Source: Flectonema sp. DT1601
Lineage: Eukaryota
DNA: 64,000 nt
Assembly: GCA_964019425.1 (NCBI GenBank)
Contig: OZ025790.1
Coordinates: forward strand, 620,001-684,000
Reading direction: 5' to 3'
The translations under genes were made by a program, and so were the position numbers. Position 1 is the first letter of the stretch. Each line of letters opens with the position of its first letter. The notes below the pieces were generated by a model. That model worked only from the letters and a program-made list of their open reading frames with translations. It ran no database searches and was not told the origin of the DNA. Positions 2,681-64,000 of this stretch are shown here, one piece after another.

Positions 2681-3636
2681 TCAATCGACAAAGCAAATTG
2701 GTTCACCCATTCGAAGTTTTCGCCGAAAGGCTTCCGGGTGGGTCATAATCTCACCTGAGTCGATATCTCTGATGAAATAAATACGAACTACGTTGTACAC
2801 ACGATTGAAGTACATTACTTTACATATCTCTTTCAGGTCCCAATGAACTTCGGCTTTTCTCTGTTATTGTTTGATAAAGTTCTCACAGCTACTGACTTAT
2901 AAATATTAAAAAAAAGAAGTCAACATACCAACGGATTGGAAACAGGTCGCATATTTTGAATTGCCGGCATATTTTCAAACCATTTTGTCTCAATTGAGAA
3001 TCGAGAGTTATTATTGTAGTCTCTAAGTCCAGCAATAAAACCGTTATCAAGCAGCAACTTTGCTATGGCTTTGGTATCGGGTGAAGTGAGTACGGTGATA
3101 AATCGCTCACGACGTTCTTTTTGTCTTTCAAGAGCAGTACACATATGTGGTAAGGGAGCAGTCATAAAAACAACATTATCTTGATCTCTGGAAGTGACGT
3201 TACCATAAGTGTGTTCATACACTTTGTTTGGGTTATCAGGAAGACCTCCAGAGTACAGTAGTTCAGCGTTCTCATCTTTCACTTGAAAGAAGAGTCTGTC
3301 GACTGGATCTTGAGGAAGTTCACTAGTCCAAAGTACTCCAGGGAGAGTAGTTTCAGTGTCTTTTTGATATTGTGTTCTTAACTTCTTCTCAACATTTCCC
3401 GGAACTGGGACTGCCCAATCTCTTCTTGTGCTTGGTGGGATTGCTTGAGTTGCTTTTGGAATACCCCAACCACCTGGAAATTTTGGGTACGGAGACCCTC
3501 TCATTGCCATCTGTGGAGTGTACTTCATTTGTTCAGATTGTGTGACCCCTCCATTCCACGTAGTTCCTTGTCTCGACCTCGACATGTACTCTGAAATGAA
3601 ATCAGCCTTCAGCAGCTGTTGTGACCGGCGCATCAT
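2681..3636 (-). CDS. Mitochondrial ribosomal protein uS8m (N-terminally extended); 2 exons
   Basis: S8-like core AIAKLLLDNGFIAG...IETKWFENMPAIQNMRPVSNP. After intron 2861-2928 it continues to ...DSGEIMTHPEAFRRKLRMGEPICFVD*. MMRRSQQLL resembles a mitochondrial targeting start. Confidence 0.7.
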
Positions 3637-29300: not shown

Positions 29301-31721
<2,421 letters not shown>

Positions 31722-32345
31722 TTAAATTTTCTTTCTTTCGACCACAAACATGAAAACATTCAACTCAACACAAAATACACAAGGATCACGACTGTCACGC
31801 GGATAAAGAACATGCGGCACCGTGGTGCAGCAATGAATGTAACCAAAAAAGCTTGAGAGGGAATCAAAAATAACCTTTTGCCGAAGAATGCCTAAGGCAA
31901 TCAAATCAACTCAGAGATGGAACAAGGATAATGAAATCACCCTTGGCGTTGTTTTTCGTGTCTGCACCACAAAACATTTTGCTACAAATGTATTATAACT
32001 ACGTATATCGTAATATTGCAGCGGATGTTGGGATAGCATGTATATAATGGAACAATAATAAATAAATAGATAAAAAAAGACTTTCCAAGAATATCAAATA
32101 GAATAAGACAACTTCAAATCCAAGTTGATAGAATTAGGGAGAGGAAGGACACGCTACTAACTCCGAATGTGTTTCTTAAAGCTTTCTGGTTCTGAGGGCC
32201 TTCAGAGCCTTGGCAACTTGCTCGCTGCTGCACTCGTTCTCAAAGAAGGTTCCCTGAGCGTCCTGCTCGCACTGGCCAACTGGCTGGGTGCTGCTGGTGG
32301 CGAATCCACTGCAGGTGGTGGAGGTCAGGTAGTCCTTCATCACCA

Positions 32346-33341
32346 GTTCAGAAAGCATTCCTCGACGTCGTTCCCGATGATCCGCAGCATCGAGTCGGTG
32401 TTCTTCGCTACACATGCCTTCTCCCAATCCCGGTTCGAATCCTTCAAGATCTTCAGGGCGAGCTTCACATCCGGACGTAGGTGCTCCGTGTCGAATTGCC
32501 TGGGTTTCGGCATATGTTGCGTTTTCCCGTCGTATGCCTTCAGTCGTAGGTGGTTGACCATCACCGGTTTATGTGTCGGGATGCCGGTGTCGCTTAGAGT
32601 CTGGGTCCTAGACTCCGCTGTTATGGCCGCCGCAGCCGTGTTGTTCAACAGGACGGCGTCGATTCTTCTTAAACCCAGTCCGCCCGTGCAGGTCGGTTCG
32701 GCGCTGTTCATCGCTACCGCGCAATCGGTCCAAAGTCCTTGGCTCGTCGCTAGTTGAATGCAAGCGGATTCGCGGGTGTCCATGTTGAAATCACCACCGA
32801 TCAACACTGGCACATCCCCCAGCGCTGCCGCTTCCCGGAGAGTCAATTTCAGGAGTTCTTCCGTGTTCGCTTCTGATCGTACATCTCCGTAGAACGAAAT
32901 TGCATGTAGAACCTTGCCTTTTCCGTATGCTACGCCAGCGTGTACGTATCTTCCGGAGTCTTCGAGTACCTTCGGTCCTCTGATCCTTCTAATCGGAGCG
33001 TTGTGTTTCGCGAGGACCGCTACTCCACCCGTGGTCTTGTAAGACCGTTCGTCGATTCTTCTCCTTTCGGAGGGTTTGCTGAAGACCGCCGACCAGCCCT
33101 CTCGTTCGAGTTGTTTGAGCATCTTCTTCTGTTCTGTTTCAGAAAGAAGTGTCTCTTGCACTAGGATGATGTCGGCGTCCAGCGCTATCACCGCTGCGAC
33201 GTTTTTCATCATCGTCGTGGTATTCACCGTTGCCACCGAGAATTCCGAAGGGAGTCTCATTGTTGCGTTGTCGTCCCCAATCCGTCCTGTGTCGGTCCAG
33301 CCGCTTCCTCTTCTTTCTGTGTTGTGGAGGTTCCGAGTCAT
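32346..33341 (-). pseudogene. ORF2 N-terminal part: apurinic-like (APE/EEP) endonuclease, truncated before the RT
   Basis: Probable start MTRNLHN at 33341; EEP motifs as listed for copy B; fuses to the cathepsin tail at 32345/32346. Confidence 0.85.
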
Positions 33342-34812
33342 TGCGATTTCTCCAGAACTGCCGCCAGCAGTAGTTCCAACCTCTCCATTCTCGCTTCCAG
33401 TGAGGATCCGGTTGTGTTTGTGCTTGAGGTGGTTTCGGTGGTGTGTTCGGTGTATCCGATCTTCCAGCGTCCCTCCAGAGCTTCGATCCCTTCTTCTTCC
33501 CATGGAACTTCAGGAAGTCGGTCTTGCAGTATCGCTTCCCGTTGTTCTCCGTCGGATCTTTTCGCGTTTCGGGTGGTGTTGCTACAACGCGTTTCACACC
33601 ATTTTGTTGGGTCACCTTCGTTGTTGGCTTCTGTCCCACTTTCTCAACAAGGCAGAGCTTCCCTCCCACCGCGACGGTGTCGGTCTCCCTCTCGGGGCCC
33701 CTCACAATCATCCAGCGGGTACCGTCTCTCACTCCTTCCCAGGTCTTCCTGACGTCCCATCCCTCCTCAGCTATCAGCTGTTTGACTGCCTCATCGGCAG
33801 TCATCCCCAGCGGTATGCCGCTAACCTTCGCTTCTGGCATTTTCGCTGGGATGCCCAGCTTCCTCCTGAGGTGTTCTCTCCGGATCTCCTCACCCTCATT
33901 CCCAGGCCGTCTTTGTTCTGCACCAGTCCGATGCAGTTCGGGTCCTCCTCGGCTTTCACCAGAGCATCGTCCAGTTTTTCTTCGCCCGGGAGCCAGATGA
34001 TAGCTCTGTTTTCGTTCCTGGATTTCTCCATCACGAAAACCCCGGCTTTTCCGGATGTCCGAAGGAAGGCCTCCACTTCTTCCTCTCTAACCCTTACTAC
34101 GGCCGAAGCTTCTTCTGGGTTTATCCTGGGTAAATACCCGTCCACGAAACCCTTCATTTCCCTCAGGCAGGTTGTGACCCTCTTCGGGTTTCGCTGGAAT
34201 CGTTTCCAGTCCTCCGCCGAGCATCTCTTCTTGGTCGCCCTCACGACCAATTCGGTCGTGGGAGCGACGCCTCCCGATCCAGCAATGCCCTTCATCTGGG
34301 CCTCCTTTCCTAGATCCGTGACTTCCTACGATGTCGACGTGTTTCGAGAATTCGAGGGTCACTCCGTTCATCTCTATTTTGTGTCCGTTCTCTTCCCGGT
34401 TGGAGAACCAGTTGCATTTGTGAGGTGCCAGCTGTTGTCCCGTCACTGTGCAGTATTCGGCTACGATGTCGACACCCTTCTGTAGGTCTTCTCTGGCTCC
34501 CACCAGCGTCAGATCGTAGAGATGGGTCTTCCTCTGAGGAGGATTCGGATCCTCCCTTCGCCCTTTTTTTGGTAGAAGGTGAGGGCTTTGGCCCGTCTCC
34601 GTTGAGAGCGTGTGCTCTCCGGTTCCGTTCCTTGCGCGGTGTTGCTGGGTCTCCGTTGGGGACCTTCCATCCTTCTCGCCTGGCGGGGTCCGGCGGTTTG
34701 TTGGTGTTTGGTGGTGTTGACGGTGCTGGTGGTGCTGTCGGTGCCTCTGCATCTTTCGGTCTATCGTTTCCGGTGTCCAGGAGCGCCCCGAGGAGGCAAA
34801 TGCACAGCTCCC
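33338..34812 (-). pseudogene. ORF1 (gag-like) of the retrotransposon, broken by a 206-nt insertion and two apparent 1-nt frameshifts
   Basis: Reconstructed: ...AEAPTAPP...EEDPSL|GKEAQMKG...FLRTSGKAGVFV...GLGMRVRR/LRRKLGIPAKMPEAKVSGIP...QPDP/SLEARMERLELLLAAVLEKSQ*. Its TGA overlaps the ORF2 ATG (ATGA, 33338-33341). Confidence 0.65.
34748..34812 (-). ncRNA. HDV-like self-cleaving ribozyme at the 5' end of retrotransposon B
   Basis: GGGAGC(P1) TG TGCATTT(P2) GCC(P3) TCCTCGG(L3) GGC(P3') GCTCCT(P1', G1-U wobble) GG(P1.1) ACACCGGAAACGATAGA(weak P4) CCGAA(J4/2, catalytic C) AGATGCA(P2'). Confidence 0.85.
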
Positions 34813-34831
34813 TTAACCCTCCATTGCAACC
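34813..34831 (-). repeat. Third copy of the cathepsin target site (GGTTGCAATGGAGGGTTAA) between elements A and B
   Basis: 18/19 identical to the TSD at 30101/31013; the difference is a synonymous GGC/GGT change. Confidence 0.9.
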
Positions 34832-37073
34832 TGATATGTTTAGTTTTGAGTGCCGTCACCCAGTCTGTACAAAGACAGCCCTGTCGGATGATGCGACACT
34901 TTTCCGACCTATCTAGGTCAGGCCCTTACCCTCCCGTCTCCCCTCGACGTCTCCCGTCTTTTCCTTGGTGAAACCAAGGCCCAGCAGGGTTCCCTGTCCC
35001 TTCACTTCCTTCTTCGTCTTCCGTTTAGGAGCAGGTTTCGGTGGCAGTTGTCCGTGGTGTTTGTGTGAGCAGCACCAGGATGCCAGTCGGTGCGACCGGT
35101 TCGCGTTGCGACCGCAGCTTAGACAGATCGGTCTGTCGTGTTGTTTGCACCTGTGATGGTGCTTCCCGCAGCAGGTGTCGGCTGTCTTCCTCTGCGAGTA
35201 GCAACTCCCGCATGCCGTCATCCTGTGCTTCGTACAGAAGTCCCAGGGGGGTCAGTCCGTCTGATTCGTCATTTCGTGGTGGTTGTAGCAGCATTCGTAG
35301 ATTGCCACTTCCACCGCGTTGTCGCATGTCGCGCACTTCCCCTTGCGGTGAAGTTTGCATACCGGTGGTGGCTTTTTTCCTAGTGGCGGTGGTCTCTTCG
35401 TTGCTTCCTCCGGGGCCACAACTGAGTCCTCTTGTTCGCGCATCACCGTCCATCTCGCATCCCATTCAGGTGAGGGTTCCTCGGAAGCAGTCTTCCTCCA
35501 AATGTCAGCTTTCTTTTCCCATCCCGGCGGGTGTTCGATGAACGTGTTGCTGCCGAAAGGTTGTTCGGGGTACAGGTCTTTCTTCTCGTGTGCGTCCGAG
35601 ATCAGGTCTTCTACCTTCCGGGCAGATTCTTCACCTCCGAGGAACGTCGATCTCCTGTCGATTCCCGCAATTCTCGGTCCGTCCAGCGGTCGTAGAGATT
35701 TGATCACTTCCTTGATGTTGCCATCGGGGTAGATTCTCTTGTCCGGTCCGTCCATTTCCTTCGCGATCCTGTCTATCTTCACCAGTAGGTTGGCGAAGGT
35801 TCTCGATTTCTTGTCCATTGAAATCGGGTGGGTGCTTTCGGTGTGGCTGGTGGTGGCTTCTTTCAATCTGATTCCCGTGCAGATCTCGAAGTCCACCGCC
35901 ATTTCCAGGAAGGTTATCCCGTTTCCGTCCTTCCTTGCCGCCCACTTGATCCTGTTCAAGTAGCTTGCAATCGCGAGGTATGTTTCTCTCGTATTGCATC
36001 CCGGCCAGGCTCGGTAGTTAGGCATGTATCGGGCCAGGTTGTTGGGGTACGAGATCATCTCTTCGGAGCTCCAGTCGCCGGCGTATTTCAGTGTGGTGGT
36101 CGGTCGTGCCGTCCGATCGCAACGTCTTCTGTCTCTCTCGAGTCTGATTCGCGCCAACATCAGTTGCATCCTCCCAGTGATTCCGTCCGGAAGTTCCATT
36201 TCCAGGGGTTTTATCCCGCAGAGTCTGAGACATGGTGGCCAGGATTCTGAGTAAACATGCATTACGTCAGGAAATTCAGAACGGATTTCGTCGTATGATG
36301 TGCATATCCAGAAGTTGTGGTCAAGGGATTCCACCTTTTCCTCACCATCCTCCGTACAGTTCTTGCACGTCTTGTCCCCACCTCCGGCATTCTCATTGGT
36401 GAAGATGTCGTCCATCATAATGCTCCTGACAACCCCTCTTTCCAACGGCAGTCCCAACTTCAGCAGTTGTAGGGTTTCTCCTCTGTCGATACCGTTTTCG
36501 ATTCCTTTCAGGTTCACTCTCTGTTTAGTGACCTTCTTCCACTCGATCAGCCTGCAGCTTTCACGGATCTCGTGCTGCCAGGCTCCCAGTTCCAGATCGT
36601 TCATGTTGAAGGTCTTCGTCGGTGTTTTGATTTCCAACGGTGATTCCCAGCTCCATCCCATTCTCCGTAGTGATTCCATCACCAATCCGATAGGGCCTCT
36701 CGTTCGGGTGGATTCTTTCGCCTTCCTCCATGTATCGATTATTCTTTCTCGGAATTTGTCGAGCATCCGTACGAACATCGATAGCCTGTTGTAGGTTATA
36801 TAGGTGTCCGGGTTTACGCAGTGTCCCTTGCACAGTAGTGATAATCCTATCGTGTTCGATAGTTTACTTCCTTTTACCTTCCTATTGAAGATCGCTGCTG
36901 CCATCGTGCTTTTCAGCTGACCCAGTCGTTTCTGATCTGGTTGGTACAGCTCTATGCCGAACAGGGCGCTCGTCATGACAGCTGCGGTCGCGATCATTGC
37001 TCTCTTGTAATACTTCAGGGGTAGCAGTTTGATCCTTCTCGCTCTCTCGAGAAGTTCCTTCGTGATCCTCCAC
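34832..37073 (-). mobile_element. Non-LTR retrotransposon copy A: 5'-truncated 3' half (post-RT region, CCHC knuckle, Cys/His repeats, 81-nt 3' UTR)
   Basis: ORF 35252-37075 contains ERARRIKLLPL, SALFGIE and CKNC...ESLDHNFWIC. It continues in the same frame past one TGA (35252-35254) to TAG at 34913, and ends ...CAAAACTAAACATATCA at the target site. Confidence 0.85.
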
Positions 37074-37352
37074 ACATCTTGGCTGGGCCAGCCTTGGTAG
37101 GAACGTTCAGGCTGTGGTACACTTTGAACTCATCAGCGCTCAGGTCAGAGTAAACGTTCATTCCGAAGCTCGCTCCAGGGTTTGAAGCCTCCAGCTCAGC
37201 TCCCTTCATCATGTTGTTCTTGAAGATCGATCTTCTCTTCACTTCGTCAGATCCGGAGTACTGCTTTCCGTAGGTCTCCTTGTAGTTGCTCCACAACAGA
37301 CCCTCGTTCTCCTCAACGTAGCTGAGGGGAAGGGCCGAGGTGGCCGCGGCCA

Positions 37353-37435
37353 TGGCGAGCATTCTCTCGTATTGCATCCCGGCCAGGCTCGGTAGTTAGG
37401 TATGTATCGGGCCAGGTTGTTGGAGTGGCGAGCAT
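37353..37435. repeat. 63-bp copy of retrotransposon ORF2 sequence inserted in the cathepsin copy 2 signal peptide with a 10-bp duplication
   Basis: 37363-37425 matches 35985-36047 (61/63); flanked by TGGCGAGCAT at 37353-37362 and 37426-37435. Confidence 0.9.
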
Positions 37436-38014
37436 GCAGGCAGTCTTCATTTTTGAAAATGTGTGTGTTAAAGTAGAAATAACTGAATCAGGGAGAGAGA
37501 GAGAGAGAGGAAAGAAATAATAAATATTAATAAAATAAAATAAAACAAAATACAACATTATATCGATCCAGGAGGGACAAGTCAAGCGGAAGCTCCAGTG
37601 AAAGTCTGTAAACTCGCTCTCTAAAACTCGACAACCCCAATGTCGGTGGCAGTCTTCATTTTTTAAAACATCCTGAGAAATAACTGAAATAACAAGTAAA
37701 GGAAACAATAAATATCATATTAACACGTTAAGTCCCCTCTTCTTCTGAGATTCAAAACAACAATAAGTTAGTAGTGAAATAGTTAATATCGAGACGGAGT
37801 AGAAATCTAAAGACGGAGTGGAACAGAAGATTGAAAACAAGTTTCAGTAGTTGAATACAACATTTATTAATACAAATCAAACCATCGGATGGAATGCTGC
37901 AATCAGTAAACAGTCACAGTCACTCCCCTCGGGGATCAAGCAAACAGTCGAATCAATTCACACTTAGACTTTATCTATTAAATGCTTAAGATAAGTCATT
38001 TCCCGCATGTGAAT

Positions 38015-47819: not shown

Positions 47820-49267
47820 TTAAACAGCCATCTGCATCTTGATAGTTGGAAAAGGAGCGTAGTCAAGAACAGCAAAATCTTCCATACAATAGTCTTCAAC
47901 CTTGTCATGGTGATTAATAATCTTAACTACTGGGAATGGACGTGGATTTCTCTCAAGCTGAGTTTGAAGTGGTTCCACGTGATTTGAGTACACATGAGCA
48001 TCACCTAAAGTATGAATAAAATCACCCGGCTTAAGACCACATATATCAGCCAATATAATTGTTAATAACGAGTACGAAGCGATATTAAAAGGTACTCCAA
48101 GACCCATGTCACATGATCGCTGGTACATTTGACATGAAAGCTCTCCATTTGCAACATAAAATTGAGATAAGATGTGACAAGGAGGTAAAGCCATCTCTGG
48201 CATAGCTGTTGGGTTCCAAGCAGACATGATGATTCTTCTATCGTTTGGATTGTTTTTAATCTTGTCGATTACTTCAGCTAGTTGATCAATACCCTTACCA
48301 GAGTAGTCATCGTGACAGGTTCCATATTCGGCCCCAAAATGTCTCCATTGAAATCCGTAGATGGGTCCGAGGTCTCCTACTTCTCTGTTGTGAAGACCTC
48401 TGCCGTCGAGGAATTCACGAGTTCCGTTGTCATCCCAGATACCTACTCCCTTGGCTTTGAGAGTTTTACCGTTAGTTTCTCCTTTTATAAACCAAAATAA
48501 TTCCTCAGCAACACCAGTCCAGAAAACCCTTTTTGTTGTCAATAACGGAAATCTACCATCGCGGAGTGAAAATCTCATCTGAGCACCAAAACGAGAGATG
48601 GTACCGACACCAGTTCTGTCACCTTTCTTGACACCATTCAAAATGATGTCTTCAACGAGATCGAGGTATTGTTGTTCTTCTTTGTTAGAACGGGAATACT
48701 TCTCAAATGAGTAAGTGAAGTCACCTTCTGTTTGGTCATCAGATTTTGATATTTGTTGGTATCCTTTTGGAGTTCCTTCGAAATCGATGCTCACATCACA
48801 TCCGTGATCACCTTTTACACGTGTGATAAAAACATGATGAAGGGGAAGTTTTTTATTTTCCAACGCATTCTTGTAGATCGACGCACCTCCGATAACAAAA
48901 ACACGATCAATAGAATCAAGGTAAGGTGACTCTGTTAATAATGATAAAGCCTTTTCTAAGTCACCATTCACAACTAAAACATCATCTCCAGCAACATCTT
49001 CCATCGTCGTTGATAAGACGACATTTAACCTTCCTGGGAGTGGTCTGAATTTTGACGGGATAGATTCCCAGGTCTTTCTTCCCATTATAACTGCGTTCTT
49101 CTTGTTTGCTTCTGCTGCTTTGGTGCTGCTGGACTTGGTCGTTATTTCTTTGAAATATTTCAGGTCCCCAGGTATTCTCCATGGAAGGTCACCGTCTTTT
49201 CCAATCCCTCCTTTTTCATCGGAGGCTACAATGATTGAGAATGGTCTCATCACGTTATGAAAACTCA

Positions 49268-49268
<1 letters not shown>
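47820..49268 (-). CDS. DHFR-TS: Bifunctional dihydrofolate reductase-thymidylate synthase
   Basis: DHFR motifs GIGKDGDLPW, VIMGRKTWESIP, RPLPGRLNVVLS and VFVIGG; TS motifs DRTGVGT, LPPCH and YQRSCDMGLGVPFNIASY. Confidence 0.98.
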
Positions 49269-56797: not shown

Positions 56798-59700
56798 TTA
56801 ATCTTTCTTCGTGAGACCGAAGACACCATCCCAGTATTGGTTCTTAACTTCTGGAAGTGGTGATCTTGGGCGATCAAATCCTCCCTGAGTTAGGGTACCG
56901 TACGCTGTTGAAAACAAAACGCCGTGAGCTCTGTTCTCCAACTGTGTTCTTGAACTATCTTCGTTGTAGAAGTTTGTGTAGAATTCACTCTCAACAGTCG
57001 AAACGTTATCCTTGTGTGTGTCTACGAACCCAACATCACTTCCTTCACCACCAATGATTTCATTCCTATCAGCTGTGTGGTCATCCCGACTGATATCAAT
57101 CATTCGATCCCAACAATCGACATCAAATAATTTATATGTCGAACTCTTTAAGTCAACGTAATTGTTATCAACTAGTTGTCCATCTCTTTGAAGAATTGAT
57201 AAAACGATTCCTGTGAGTTGTTGAAATTATTAATTCCAATTAATGAAAAAAATGGAATTCGAAAAAGGATCCTAACCTACCAAACAAAGACATACCTGCG
57301 TTATTGTTAACCAGAACATCAGCACCATTGCCTCCATTGATAATGTCACAAAGAGGTCCACTCTTTGGTTCATCGTGATTGAAGCTGTCGGAACTCTCGT
57401 GATTTTCTCTACTGTGGTGAGAGTAACGTTTTTTGCGTTCATTCCAATCGTGATCATCATCGTCATGATGGTGTTCGTCGTCATGGCGATGCCACCAGCT
57501 GGTGTACTCATGGTGGTGACCTGTTTTTAATTTATTTCAAAACTCAACACGGATACAAAACTATTTGTTAAAAATAACATCTCACATCAGTTCCTTTTTC
57601 AACCTCTCCCCACCCTTCCACCCTCCCTCTTGTGATTGGATTACTTCACACAAAAAGTTAATAAAAACATACCCTTATCATTGTACAAAACAAGGTTGCT
57701 GTATGGGTGTAGACCCTCGTCTCTGCCCTTCAACAACCCAAGCTTCTTCGCCGGGTTGAGTGCACGTTCCTTGATAGTGTCTTGAATATTAGTCATGTAC
57801 ATATCTTGGACTACATCAATGTGTTGGAAGTCGTGTTCTGTAGTTGGGTCAGCATGTGCTCCCGCAAAAGTATTGACGAACAAGATTCCGTAGTCTCCGA
57901 TCACCACGTCGTCTCCGGCGTTTCCATTAAGCTCGTCGGATCCCCACTTCGTAAGCGGAAGGGCGTTCCATCTCTCGTTCGAACGATGTCCAAGCTCGTG
58001 GATGGCAAGAGCGTGTGAAGGAGAAAACACGTCAACGTGGCGCTTGAACTTGTACTCCAAGTCGTTGAACAGCTGAGTGAAGGTGTGCTTGTCGTGGTTG
58101 TCACTCGGGTAGTAGTGGTCAAATTGATCATTGTGGTCATCTTGGTTAGCGTCGTCGTGGTGGTCGCTGTTTGGATCGTGATCCCTGTACTCAACCCACA
58201 CCCATCTCCAACCGTTCCAGTGGTAGTGTCCTGTGTGTTCGTGTTGCCAATCTCCGTGGTGATCGTGTGCAGGAGGATTCTTTGTCAGGGTCTTCGAAAC
58301 TAACACCAAACCATCACCAACCAGAACATCGTTTCCGTTGTTTCCGCGTATCACATCATTCGACATCGAGAGCTCCACCGCAGGTGCGGCAACCCCGACA
58401 TCGCTGTTAGCAACCAACGCCTCAACAATCGCGTGGTGGGCTTCGAATACTGCGTGTGCAGCGTCCGCCGCCAACACCGAGTAGTCGTACAAGACGTGCA
58501 TCATACCCTTCACAACGATTTCCAAGTCATCCTCAACAATTTCATCGTGGAAGATTACGTCTACGAACGACTGCATGTTGTCTCCAACCAGCAAATCGTT
58601 TCCATTTCCTCCGTTTACCACATCGTTTCCGATCACTACCTCCGCTGGAAGCGCGTATGTTCCTTGGTCCGACTCGTAGGTACGCAAGTCAGTAGTCGCT
58701 CGGAGGAGGCGGTTTTGCAACTCAATCCAGCGCGCACCAGCTGAGTCGTGAATGCAGTCCAAAGCACCGATTCTTAGGTTCATCATCGCATGGTGTGTCG
58801 CACTGTCTCCAACCACGATGTCGTTTCCGTCACCCCCGTTCAACACGTCGTTTCCGTACAACGCCCTCTGGTTACGCACCGCGTCTGGGATCATCGACAC
58901 GTATCCCCTCATCGTGTGTGACTGGTCGTCCGTGCGCCTCACATCTGCTACCCCGACTGCCTCGTGCAGTTTCTCCAACGCAGTCGGCAACACGGTAGCC
59001 ATTGCCGCCCCCTCGATGATTTGCATAGCCGCCGCACGGTTCGAAGACTCCGGCTTCAACGCGATTCCAACGTGCATCACCGTTCCGAATTCATCGACTT
59101 CCAGAGGAGGCGAGTTCGCCGCACTGTCCTCCACCGACAGCACTCGAATCACGTTCGACACCAGAGGCATGTCGGAGTCGTAGTGGTACACCGAAGACAC
59201 ATCGTCTCCGTACAGCAAGTCGTTTCCTCCCTCTCCCGACAGCACGTCGTCTCCACGCTGTCCGAACAGATAGTCGTCGCCGTCTCCACCGTTCAGCGTG
59301 TCGTGGCCGGCAGGCTTCAACCTCATGCCCGCAATCGCCGTCTCCCACTCACCGCTTGGAGCCGTCGCCTTCACCTTCTGCGATTCGAATGCGCCCATCG
59401 ACACCAGCAGCTCGTTCCTGAAGAAGGTTGCGGCTTCGTCAGCTGTGAACGTGCTACTCTCCCACGTTGGCAGCCATCCGGTCACCGTCACCGGCTCTTC
59501 GAGAACAACGTCACGGTGCCAGGCACCTGTCCTTTCGTTCAAACGCGGGCTTCCGCCGCTCCTCAACGATCGCACCACGTGCCCGACATCTCCGATCAGC
59601 ACGTCCCGTCCTTCCCCGCCGTGCAGAACGTCGTCCCCGAGTTCACCGAACAGCTCGTCGTCTCCCTCCTGTCCGTGCAACGTGTCGTCTCCACGCTGAC

Positions 59701-62700
59701 CGTGCAAGATGTCATTACCTGCTCCACCATCGATGCTGTCATTCCCAGACACCTCGTCGACGTCATCGAACCTCTGGATAGTCCGCACCACGTCTGCGAA
59801 CATTGCCGATCCAGGGTACCGCTCCCACACCTTCTCGTGGTCGAATGGAGCTCCGTTCTCCATCGTTAACACAGTCCTGCTGATTACACCGTTGTCACCC
59901 AGCACCACGTCTGATCCCTCTTCTCCGAAGATCGTGTCGTCGCTGTCCACTCCTCCCAGCACGTTGTGCCCCCCAGTGATGTCATCGTCGCCGTCCCCAC
60001 CGTTGATCGTGTCCTTTCCTTGCTGTCCCATCAGGAAGTCATCCCCCTCCCCTCCGTTAATCGTGTCGTCTCCGGCACCGACATCCGACGACGTGAACAA
60101 CGACAAGTACGTCGACCCACCACCCTCGAAGGCTGCGTGGTCACCCATCACCACATCCGAACCGGCGTTCCCGTTGAGCACGTCGTTTCCGGTTCCTCCG
60201 AATACGTAGTCGTCACCTGACCCTCCGTTGATCACATCCGACGCACCAGCCAGTGGATCGATCGTTTCCGCGGACACCACCTTCAGTGTCGCTGCATTCA
60301 CCTTTGCGACAACCTGATCTCCCCACAACATATCCTGGCCATCCTCTCCGTCCAACGTGTCAGATCCTTGTTGCCCCGCCAAAAGATCATTACCAGCGCC
60401 TCCCTTTAAGTGATCCGCTCCACCATTCACGTCGTCTCCTGTCGACACCGATGTAAAGGTGAGCAGCTCGGTGGACCTTTCGAAGACCGCGAAGTCACCG
60501 AACGCGACGTCGTGACCTGCTTCTCCCTCCAACACGTCGTCACCTTTTCCTCCGAACATCACGTCGTTGTCATCGCCACCGAACATCGTGTCCGCACCAC
60601 CGGTCCCCTGCGACATTGGTTCCGCATGCGATACCAGTCCGGTGTTTCCCTGCTGCGTCTCGATCGACATGTGGTCTCCGAACATCCAGTCGTCTCCGGG
60701 GTTCCCCTTCAAGTTGTCTCCCCCGTTCCCGCCGACGATCACATCGCTGCCGGCCCCACCGGAAACCTCGTCCGCGCCTCCTCCGTACTGGTCCTCTGTA
60801 AACACCGATTCCAACGTCACGCTGCCATCCGCCACAGCGGTGCCCCACCTCAGCTCCAAGTAGTCACCGAACAACACGTCGTTACCGACACCGCCTGCCA
60901 ACTCGTCGTCTCCAGCCCCTCCGACCAGCACGTCCGCGCCGTCGTCTCCGTGAAGCTCATCTCCGCCACCCATCCCTGGATCTGTGGACACCGCGTGCAC
61001 GTTGTTTCCATCGTGTGGAATTGTTATCTCTGCGAAGTCACCAAAGATCCAATCATCTCCTGCGTTTCCGTGCATGACGTCCGCCGCTGCACCACCAAAG
61101 AGAACGTCGTCGCCTTCATCACCGTTCAGGGTGTCCGCTCCTCCGGCCTGGTCATCTCCCGGGAACGCTGTTTTCATAGTCACATCTCCCTCCTTCGACT
61201 TGGTGTACTCTGCGTGGTCTCCGAACACGAAGTCCCTTCCGGAATTTCCGCTTACTTCATCCGCAGCCGCACCACCGATGACCACGTCGTCCCCCTCGTT
61301 TCCAGAAATCGTATCCCCTCCCCCGAGGGTCGCCTCCGTCGATTTCATCGTCACTCCCCCATCGACGATGTCCACCGAACCATGGTCCCCGAGGATCTTG
61401 TCGTCACCCGCACCACCAACGATGTCGTCTCCGCCTGCCCCTCCGAAGATGATGTCATCTCCATCCGATCCGGCAACCGTGTCGGCATCTCCGTTGCTTC
61501 CAGGGGTCTTGAAGACCGTGCGCATGTGGCGGTCTTCCGGACTTGTGTACGACCGCTTGATCTCTCCGCAGTCTCCGAACACCACATCATTACCTTCCCC
61601 ACCGTCGATGACGTCCCTGTCCGCACCTCCGAACACGGAATCGTCACCGGCTCCAGCGACAATCGTGTCGTTTCCACCGCTCACCGCCTGCTCCAGACAC
61701 TTCAGCGTGTGCTCGTCCTTCTTGATCGACAACAGCACGTCTCCGTGATCCCCGAACACCACGTCGTTTCCGCTCGACGCGTCGATGTGGTCAGCACCCT
61801 GTCCACCGATGATGAAGTCATCGCCTTCGTCACCGTTCAGTTTGTCGTCTCCTCCACAACCAGACTCGGTGTGCGTCGAGTGCAACACACGCTCGTCTTT
61901 CTTTGACTCATACAGACCGTGGTCCCCGACAATCACATCTGCCCCACCGTTTCCATCGATCACATCTCCTCCAGCACCTCCGAACACGTAATCGTCTCCA
62001 GCTCCCGCCGTGATTGTATCGTCGCCACCACTACACGACCCGAGTGTGATGAGTTTCGTAAGCTCCGCGCTCGGCGTCCACGCAACCTCCCCGAGGTCTC
62101 CGAAGATGTAGTCGTTCCCGCCCTCGCCGTCGACTTCGTCGTCTCCCTCACCCGCAACTACCACGTCGTCCCCTTCGCCAGCGAAGATCTTGTCCGCCGC
62201 ACCGGCATCCGATGTCGCCGGACCTGCCGATCCCTTCACGGTGAAGTCACCTGGATTAGTCGTCTCGTATTTCCCGTAGTCTCCGATGATGACGTCCCCA
62301 CCGGCCCCTCCGTGGACCACGTCACCGCCTGCCCCAGCGAGTATCTTGTCGTCGCCTAGTCCACCGTCGATGACGTCGCTTCCCCCGCCCACCTGGTTTG
62401 CGTTGCGCAACCTCACCCAGTGTGACGATGGGTTCAAATGCACCTCTCCAGCGTCTCCGAACACGAAGTCATCTCCGTCTCCTCCATTGATGGTGTCCTC
62501 ACCACCACCTCCCAACAAGATGTCGTTCTCTTCGTCTCCGTTCAAGTGATCATCCTCCCCATCCGCCGCGTCACCAGTCGTGACGAGGTGGGTCAGCCCA
62601 GTCAGAGGCGTGCGAGTCATGATCCCGATGTCACCGAATACCACGTCCAACCCAGCGTTTCCGCTGATCGAGTCCGCGCCCCGTCCTCCGAATAGGATGT

Positions 62701-64000
62701 CGTCCCCCGCGCTTCCGTGGATGGTGTCATCCCCGCTCCCGGCAGTGGCCTCGCCGTCGAAGACCGTTTGCAAAACCAAGTCACCCGGCTGTGTAAACAT
62801 CTTCCTCACGCGTCCAAAGTCACCGAAGATGAAGTCGACTCCATCCTCCCCATCGATTACATCGTTGGCCGATCCTCCGAACACGATGTCGTCTCCGCCA
62901 CCAGTCAGAATCTCGTCATTCCCGCCATCCGCCAGCGCAGGCGCAGTCGACTCGTACACCAACGAATCGGCCTCCTTCGAGATTACCACCGATCCGTGGT
63001 CTCCAAACACCGAATCGTCTCCTCCGCGCGTGCGGATGACGTCGTTGCTCTGACCCCCGAACACGTAGTCCTTCCCGTCCTGCACGTCTATTGTGTCACT
63101 TCCACCCTCCCCGCCCTCCGTGAAGATCGAGGTCATGTTGAACTCATCGCTGGCATTGCGCTGCACGAATCCGTGGTCTCCGAACACCACGTTGTTCCCG
63201 TTGCTTCCATCGATGGTGTCGTTCCCGTATCCTCCGAAGACGATGTCGTCCGCGTCTCCTGCCGAGATGGTGTCCGCTCCGCCAGACAACGGAGCCAAGG
63301 ATTCCAACGTGTAGGTCCCGTTCTCGTGGTCGCGTACGTGACCGTGGTCCCCAAAGATCCAGTCACTTCCCTCGGCAACCGTGATCACGTCGTCTCCCTG
63401 ACCTCCCATGATGATGTGCCGGCCGTACGAACCCGTGATCGTGTCAGCTCCTCCCTCGCCATCGGAATCGGTGAAAGTCGACTTCACGTAGAGTCCTCCC
63501 ACGTCGGGGTTGCTGCTGTCGTGCGTCGTCCGGTACACCTCTCCATGGTCCCCAAGCAAGATGTCTTCGCCGCTGCTACCGACCACCTCGTCGTCACCGA
63601 ACCCACCAATGATCACGTCGGTCTCCGACTCTCCGTACAGGTGGTCATTTCCTCCCGACAAGCTCGCAGTCGAACGGAGCGACCACGTGTCCGAAGTTGC
63701 TGGGTCGTCGCTGATGTCAATCTCACCCTGGTCACCGATGATGAAGTCCTTTCCGTCCCCTCCGTGCACCGTGTCCCCTCCTTGACCACCGATTATGATG
63801 TCGTCTCCCACCGATCCGCTGAGGACGTCGTCGCCCCCCTCTCCCGCGTCCCCAGTGTGCAGCGACTCGAATTTTCTCCATCCCCCAACCGCCGACCATT
63901 TGATCTGGTACCGACCATGGTCACCGAAGATCACGTCGTTGTGTTTTTCTCCCTTGATCGAATCCTTCCCAGTCCCTCCGAAAACCACGTCGTCTTCGTC
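56798..64000 (-). CDS. Giant RTX/hemolysin-type Ca-binding repeat protein (5' end beyond window); last 3 exons
   Basis: More than 2100 aa of GGxGxDxL/I nonapeptides and DxxFGDHG modules. GTATGT...ACAG introns at 57521-57672 and about 57211-57296 join in frame to ORF 56798-57103. Confidence 0.9.

Follow-up and report, generated by a model that had tools for sequence, protein, structure and literature searches.

Organization of the locus

The window, by which we mean the whole stretch of 64,000 nucleotides that was analysed, carries its host genes on the minus strand, and cathepsin L genes among them are interrupted by inserted DNA. The features are collected in Table 1. One of these genes contains a LINE that lies in pieces: the order is a cathepsin 5' fragment, ORF2 amino acids 857-1577, a copy of the target, a candidate ribozyme, ORF1 with an RT piece, ORF2 amino acids 1-331 and a cathepsin 3' fragment, while ORF2 amino acids 332-777 are missing. 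The ribozyme adjoins a 3' end that belongs to a different piece of this element, and not an intact cathepsin exon. This scrambled order reflects either a rearrangement or a mis-assembly. In the 3' half of ORF2 there is one local frame disruption, near 35252, and the 80-nt 3' UTR has no poly(A); the stop codon of ORF1 overlaps the start of ORF2 (ATGA). The 20-nt target copy may be a target duplication or, in part, the element's own 3' tail.

Table 1. Features of the two interrupted cathepsin L genes, in window coordinates
Feature	Position	Strand	Remark
Second cathepsin L gene (PF08246, PF00112, PF12131)	29301..31541	-	interrupted at the same target
892-bp non-coding insertion	30121..31012	-	at the same junction base
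Cathepsin L 3' fragment	32176..32351	-	end of the scrambled unit
ORF2 aa 1-331, APE endonuclease (PF03372)	32349..33341	-	broken off into the cathepsin 3' end
ORF1 3' part	33338..34322	-	frameshift near 33867
Displaced ORF2 piece, aa 778-848 of P0002	34303..34515	-	in place of ~300 ORF1 codons
ORF1 5' part	34516..34810	-	runs through the ribozyme in frame with cathepsin
Predicted HDV-like ribozyme	34748..34812	-	G1 = 34812; predicted catalytic C = 34758
Cathepsin L target copy, 20 nt	34813..34832	-	codons G-C-N-G-G-L and flanking bases; matches the local gene at 18/20
Element 3' half, ORF2 aa 857-1577	34833..37073	-	stop at 34913, then 80-nt 3' UTR
Cathepsin L 5' fragment	37074..37450	-	with a 65-bp copy of element DNA (37362-37426)

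The 65-bp copy in the cathepsin 5' fragment duplicates ORF2 DNA from 35984-36048; it lies in the signal-peptide region between 10-bp repeats, and is either a templated insertion or an assembly error. Elsewhere on the minus strand, a bifunctional DHFR-TS gene was found at 47820-49268, and a GC-rich ORF of 2115 aa, in which RTX calcium-binding repeats (PF00353) form 24 stretches, occupies 57641-63988, starting at the window edge.

The full ORF2 (P0001, 1576 aa) encodes an APE endonuclease (PF03372) followed by a reverse transcriptase (RT; PF00078) in one ORF, which is the arrangement of APE-type non-LTR elements, and has a cysteine-rich C-terminus; no RNase H was detected in it at E<=1. The ORF2 cluster contained 12 sequences, and the four full-length copies were either P0002 itself or 99.4-99.7% identical to it. 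The element family is young, intact and recently active. Among the matches listed, the named relatives were diplonemid. One is Diplonema papillatum (36-42% in the RT); the other, Flectonema neradi, has a related ORF1 (P0144) and, under the same transcript name, an ORF2 (P0014) with 61% identity. The host, a marine protist, is thus probably a diplonemid itself. In a quick tree, built without L1Tc/ingi reference sequences, the family grouped with P0013-P0015 (SH-aLRT 100) within a broad protist set, and the more distant element of locus L012 formed a long branch of unsure placement. A sequence search of the PDB failed to separate L1 (64.8 bits) from R2 (57.9 bits), and aligning ORF2 against viral contigs gave 0 matches. 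In the public runs X1-X3 only traces cover the APE element, and this coverage is not a measure of expression. A motif N-x3-H-x2-NG[N/G] lies near the ORF1 start in the window family, P0144, P0146, P0159, P0175 and P0203, and at 3158 and 3563 in L012; it is a candidate processing or recoding site. At ~190-220 of locus L001, a related ORF2 is preceded by the peptide DVEQNPGP, which we take to be a 2A-like motif. A 2A-like peptide has been reported for L1Tc.

The predicted ribozyme

Each structural part of the HDV-like ribozyme that had been proposed for 34748-34812 (P1, P2, P3, L3, P1.1 and J4/2) was found on the minus strand where it had been placed. P1 (GGGAGC/GCTCCT) has 6 bp including a G1-U wobble, J1/2 is 2 nt long, P2 has 7 bp with one G-U, P3 is GCC/GGC, L3 is TCCTCGG, P1.1 is CC/GG, and J4/2 is CCGAA with the equivalent of C75 at 34758. 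The fold is a nested double pseudoknot of P1, P1.1, P2 and P3, and it has what characterizes HDV-like ribozymes: a P1 of 6-7 bp opening with a G1 wobble or pair, a P2 of about 7 bp, the L3 consensus (U, C, C..CG), and a catalytic C followed by N-R-A in J4/2. This L3 and J4/2 consensus agrees with the Rfam model line. According to excerpts of PMC4908430, 6 or 7 bp is the usual length of P1 in the HDV-like family, and J1/2 spacers of 0-1 nt are inactive or weak, compared with 2 nt in the window. In a search of both strands of the 64 kb, the strict HDV descriptor returned a single match, which was this fold, and it returned 0 matches when the 5.2-kb element region was shuffled 5,313 times with dinucleotides preserved. 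With a relaxed descriptor, 9 matches arose in 1,849 shuffles, 2 of which equalled the window fold. The covariance model RF00094 did align at the ribozyme, but weakly (17.9 bits, E 7.2), and against a gathering score of 50 this places the fold outside the HDV ribozyme proper. The nested fold of 34740-34850 was no more stable than shuffled sequences (z 0.98), and pair probabilities of ~0.8 were obtained for P1 and P3 with 30 nt of upstream target included. Taken as a prediction from sequence, the identification as an HDV-like ribozyme is supported.

P4 had originally been described as short and weak, which is true of the window copy, where a C-A mismatch at 34764 shortens the stem, but not of the family. 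The codon concerned encodes Asp in the window and Gly in all 7 other informative copies, and the only single-base change that leads to Gly would yield a 4-bp P4 stem closed by GAAA. Because the other copies thus imply a fourth P4 pair, the mismatch is likely a defect of the window copy that other copies do not share. It is conceivable that the ribozyme is active in the family while the window holds a relic, dead or mis-assembled, that cleaves hardly or not at all. The scrambled order, the loss of ORF2 amino acids 332-777, the frame disruptions and the P4 mismatch all fit such a relic, as does the nested fold, in which the upstream target is able to extend P1 against P1.1. However, every core position is intact, and some R2 ribozymes are described as having no P4 (excerpts of PMC3774820), and we consider an inert window copy unlikely.

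The element boundary, its targets and its relatives

The ribozyme had been predicted to start at the first base after the target and so to fix the element's 5' end; the 19-bp target does end at 34813, immediately before G1. Ten proteins make up the ORF1 cluster, 7 of which are informative about the 5' flank and 3 uninformative. These copies were examined as translated proteins, and the boundary, the P4 repair and the covariation in sister elements are read at that level. In P0132, P0136 and P0137, which involve two paralogues, cathepsin L sequence ending in GCNGGL is followed by R-ELCIC, and in P0133, P0134, P0138 and P0139 a second gene ending in KEWQGEL is followed by G-ELCIC. The window ribozyme translated in frame reads ELCICLLGALLD. 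The residues encoded by the ribozyme after the junction residue are identical in all 7 copies except at the P4 codon, and the junction residue differs (R or G) by the single base before G1 (A or G). The boundary thus falls at G1 in 8 copies, 7 of them read from protein. Since the shared sequence begins at G1 and the host sequence upstream of it differs, these copies support G1 as the 5' boundary and bear out the predicted end, as does the L012 fold described below. At least four distinct flanks occur at the two motifs: the cathepsin ones come from two paralogues and the KEWQGEL ones from two variants. Every junction known is in sense orientation and in frame, and follows codon base 1. The exact junction pattern gave 0 matches in metagenome contigs.

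The 19-bp target, which encodes the cathepsin L motif GCNGGL, also occurs at 31013-31031 and 30101-30119, giving 3 matches where 0.03 are expected. These two flank the 892-bp insertion in the second cathepsin gene as a 20-bp duplication (31013-31032 and 30101-30120), and contigs of the public runs X1, X2 and X3 bridge its empty site. The insert contains no match to the HDV descriptor and no meaningful Rfam match, and the similarity of its ends to those of the element is not significant (88 and 269 of 500 shuffles reached the same score). Target-site duplications were measurable as 20 bp here and 18 bp in L012; the window copy of the element is scrambled. Compared with the local cathepsin gene, 34813-34832 has mismatches at two of the first four bases, and the same two mismatches follow the 892-bp insert in one contig each of X1 and X2, at a depth of ~7.5. 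This suggests that insert and element share a common 3' end and machinery, or that there is an unseen paralogue. The insert is structured, pieces of it occur in X1-X3, and it is possibly a non-autonomous passenger.

The KEWQGEL target belongs to a tandem family in which members without an insertion also occur, mostly on a single 178-kb contig. Neither Pfam nor NCBIfam gave a match above cut-off for the family, and its structure model (pLDDT 40.9) was unusable. P0156, P0157, P0166 and P0195-P0202 form a tandem family: the helical N-terminus is constant, the segments right after the site are interchangeable and the C-termini differ, with a weak HNH_2 match in one member. This layout is possibly RHS/CR-like. 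The targets of all five junction types have a T 16 bases ahead of the junction, and the codon there, five upstream, encodes Cys, Trp or Tyr; this pattern was noticed post hoc and is known for three of the five targets from protein only.

In two sister elements, ORF1 (P0203 and P0144) continues an LRR-type gene, and the fusion falls at one and the same position of the repeat; the LRR assignment is an LRR_5 match below cut-off in P0144 and was made by eye in P0203. In a back-translation scan, 14 of 480,411 distinct 13-mer/phase combinations permitted the window core (516 without the P1 requirement). Three of the 14 were P0203, P0144 and P0175, in the same codon phase and with the compatible core 45-52 aa before the N-x3-H-x2-NGN motif; P0203 and P0144 had first been chosen by eye, and P0175 is the sole blind find. 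Same-family copies are identical apart from P4, and it is in these three relatives that the peptides imply re-pairing, with Y-G in place of G-C at P1 pair 5 and G-C in place of G-U at pair 1. J4/2 fits poorly in P0203, P0159 has the motif with no compatible core, P0146 is too short for the test, and P2 feasibility was too lax to count (13/16 matches). The sister junction peptides are compatible with the same ribozyme core and a re-paired P1.

A more distant case was found at the DNA level. The L012 element, with 26% ORF2 identity, lies between 18-bp duplications at 2958 and 10517 inside a light-harvesting (LHC) gene whose sequence there hardly differs from PDB 8jjr_J, a type that we take to be dinoflagellate. 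An HDV-like fold with re-paired P1 and P2 begins at 2976, the first base after the duplication, and its flaws are an A-A mismatch in P3 and a P1.1 of 1 bp. A tolerant descriptor, written post hoc after this fold had been seen, gave 1 match in 20 related loci and 4 in 1,057 shuffles; the coincidence of the fold start with the duplication edge is independent of it. The other 19 loci, most of which lack a 5' end, gave no match. The strict descriptor and Rfam found no ribozyme in related loci (scopes: 20 loci, 10 of the 20 loci, and L012 2500-3700). In L010 the sequence upstream of ORF1 is present, but fold and motif are both missing; the wider group therefore does not carry the ribozyme throughout. 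Two further LINEs lie beside LHC fragments in L012 (1-2624 and 10560-15484); the downstream one starts just past the LHC continuation and seems, by eye, to open with a decayed HDV-like fold.

These data bear on two other explanations. That the fold arose by chance, or that its position next to the target is an assembly artefact, would fit the weak Rfam score and the scrambled locus. However, the absence of matches in the 5,313 shuffles, the identical boundary in 7 other copies and the parallel case of L012 have already largely refuted this, and we regard it as highly improbable. The other explanation denies specificity at the level of the enzyme, and holds that tandem duplication and gene conversion in the gene arrays spread a few loosely preferred insertions. 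Some copies may indeed be later duplications: four lie on one 178-kb contig, three of these with identical host N-termini, and P0132 and P0136 are in one and the same cathepsin paralogue. In addition, the cathepsin and KEWQGEL targets have only G-[G/E]-L in common, at the protein level, and the segment directly after KEWQGEL varies among uninterrupted genes. Against this stand the four or more distinct flanks at two motifs, the unrelated 892-bp insert at the same base, and the sister elements at the same LRR position in two different records, and we find an origin by duplication alone rather doubtful.

Proposed release from the host transcript and comparison with known elements

On this sequence evidence, the 65-nt fold very probably opens an APE-RT LINE that sits at fixed sites in multi-copy protein-coding genes, and likely self-cleaves before G1 and frees the element RNA. 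In the proposed scheme, a polycistronic host transcript would run through the target into the element, and the ribozyme would cut before G1 in an Mg2+-dependent reaction via C34758, leaving a 5'-OH. The freed RNA would be translated, and the APE-RT protein would copy it into a new target by target-primed reverse transcription with a duplication of 16-20 bp. The element would survive because its target genes have spare copies. In a tandem such as that of the window, the downstream ribozyme would also trim the RNA of the upstream copy just after the target. The cutting, translation and reverse transcription steps are modelled on L1Tc and R2 (excerpts of PMC3185411, PMC6765202 and PMC3774820).

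Read-through from a cathepsin or polycistronic transcript, as originally proposed, is plausible because the host genes lie on the minus strand, diplonemid genes are described as polycistronic (excerpts of PMC10161547), and the host-fused sister ORF of F. neradi comes from a transcriptome assembly. In the window copy the ribozyme follows an element 3' end. The original claim that the element has no promoter is unsupported. The 5' end could be an internal promoter as well as a ribozyme, like Pr77 of L1Tc, so that the element would not rely on read-through and the ribozyme would still be real. L1Tc provides the precedent of a 5' end that is both (excerpts of PMC3185411 and PMC4035085), but the 8 copies whose flank is known all run in the sense of the host unit, though the fixed target forces that, and the F. 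neradi ORF again points to host transcription; an internal promoter therefore seems to us the less probable arrangement, with perhaps a minor chance of being correct.

In the window, P0203, P0144 and L012, the first in-frame AUG comes only after the conserved ORF1 motif, which reads NGD in the window, so that translation of ORF1 needs non-AUG initiation or a host start codon. ORF1 could accordingly arise from the cut RNA through non-AUG initiation, or be made from uncut RNA as a host fusion. The window and L012 junctions, known from DNA without frame selection, both keep the frame and contain no stop; a rough estimate of the chance of this, (1/3 x 0.42) x (1/3 x 0.58) ~ 0.03, is suggestive only, and the LRR and KEWQGEL targets would have escaped notice had they not been in frame. 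We tentatively propose, at somewhat less than even confidence, that a clade of protist LINEs in diplonemids and dinoflagellate-type genomes uses conserved motifs of tandem protein-gene families (cathepsin L, KEWQGEL, BspA-like LRR and LHC) as sequence-specific safe havens. Sense, in-frame insertion after codon base 1 would let the host provide transcription and possibly a start codon for the AUG-less ORF1, and the ribozyme would choose between a host-fused mRNA and a free template.

Splicing of the element as a GC-AG intron with the 3' end CAG|G was considered and rejected: the donor is G|GCTGC, compared with the diplonemid consensus G|GTATG (excerpts of PMC12621601), and there is no YTRAY. 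The element 3' end does run into CAG|G at 34833-34845 (minus strand), like a diplonemid splice acceptor, and could attract trans-splicing.

With a young, intact family, a 5' end set by a ribozyme and relatives that have other targets, the question of how APE nucleases switch specificity becomes testable, as does that of how uncapped, AUG-less LINE RNAs are translated. Caution is also needed where gene models of these genomes show fusions with cathepsin, LRR or LHC, since such models can be insertions.

The element likely works like L1Tc and Drosophila R2, by analogy, and is a member of neither group because it lacks defining features of both. It resembles L1Tc/NARTc and ingi/RIME (L1TcRz, Pr77) as a euglenozoan APE-RT LINE with an HDV-like ribozyme that starts at nucleotide +1, liberation out of polycistronic RNA (predicted here), target duplications, tandem copies and short non-coding passenger elements. 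In contrast to L1Tc/ingi, it has two ORFs with an ATGA overlap instead of a single ORF, no RNase H, which is listed among the features of that clade (PMC12278014), no poly(A) at its 3' end, duplications of 16-20 bp instead of ~12 bp, and a P1.1 of 2 bp. No trypanosomatid name occurred among the best 120 of 128 RT matches. With Drosophila-type R2, according to excerpts of PMC3774820, it shares site-specific insertion in a tandem multi-copy gene, an HDV-like ribozyme that frees the element from a host co-transcript by cleavage at the exact 5' junction (predicted here), a P1 of 6-7 bp and a variable P4. R2, however, has an RLE, one ORF and a 28S rRNA target, whereas the window element has an APE, two ORFs and protein-coding targets.

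A fixed insertion base in repeated sequences is also known from other sequence-specific non-LTR families, such as R1, Tx1, CRE/SLACS, NeSL and Utopia. The targets named in excerpts of PMC5035012 are rRNA, tRNA, snRNA, microsatellites, telomeric repeats and transposons, with no protein-coding genes among them. The only parallel that we found for this target class is the RHS hot spot of Trypanosoma, where, according to excerpts of PMC7563717, insertion occurs at one coding position of a multigene family, with one or more elements per site and both autonomous and non-autonomous types. Repeated insertion at one coding position by more than one type of element was likewise found here. The targets differ, being cathepsin L, which is not an RHS/CR-type protein, and the KEWQGEL family, which lacks Pfam and NCBIfam matches above cut-off, and in relatives LRR and LHC genes; moreover, the informative copies are concentrated at target sites and not dispersed. 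Our literature search, with Repbase, subscription papers and dinoflagellate LHC targeting outside its scope, found no description of the element. An HDV-like ribozyme on a LINE is already known and is here extended to another lineage; the protein-coding targets are the new part.
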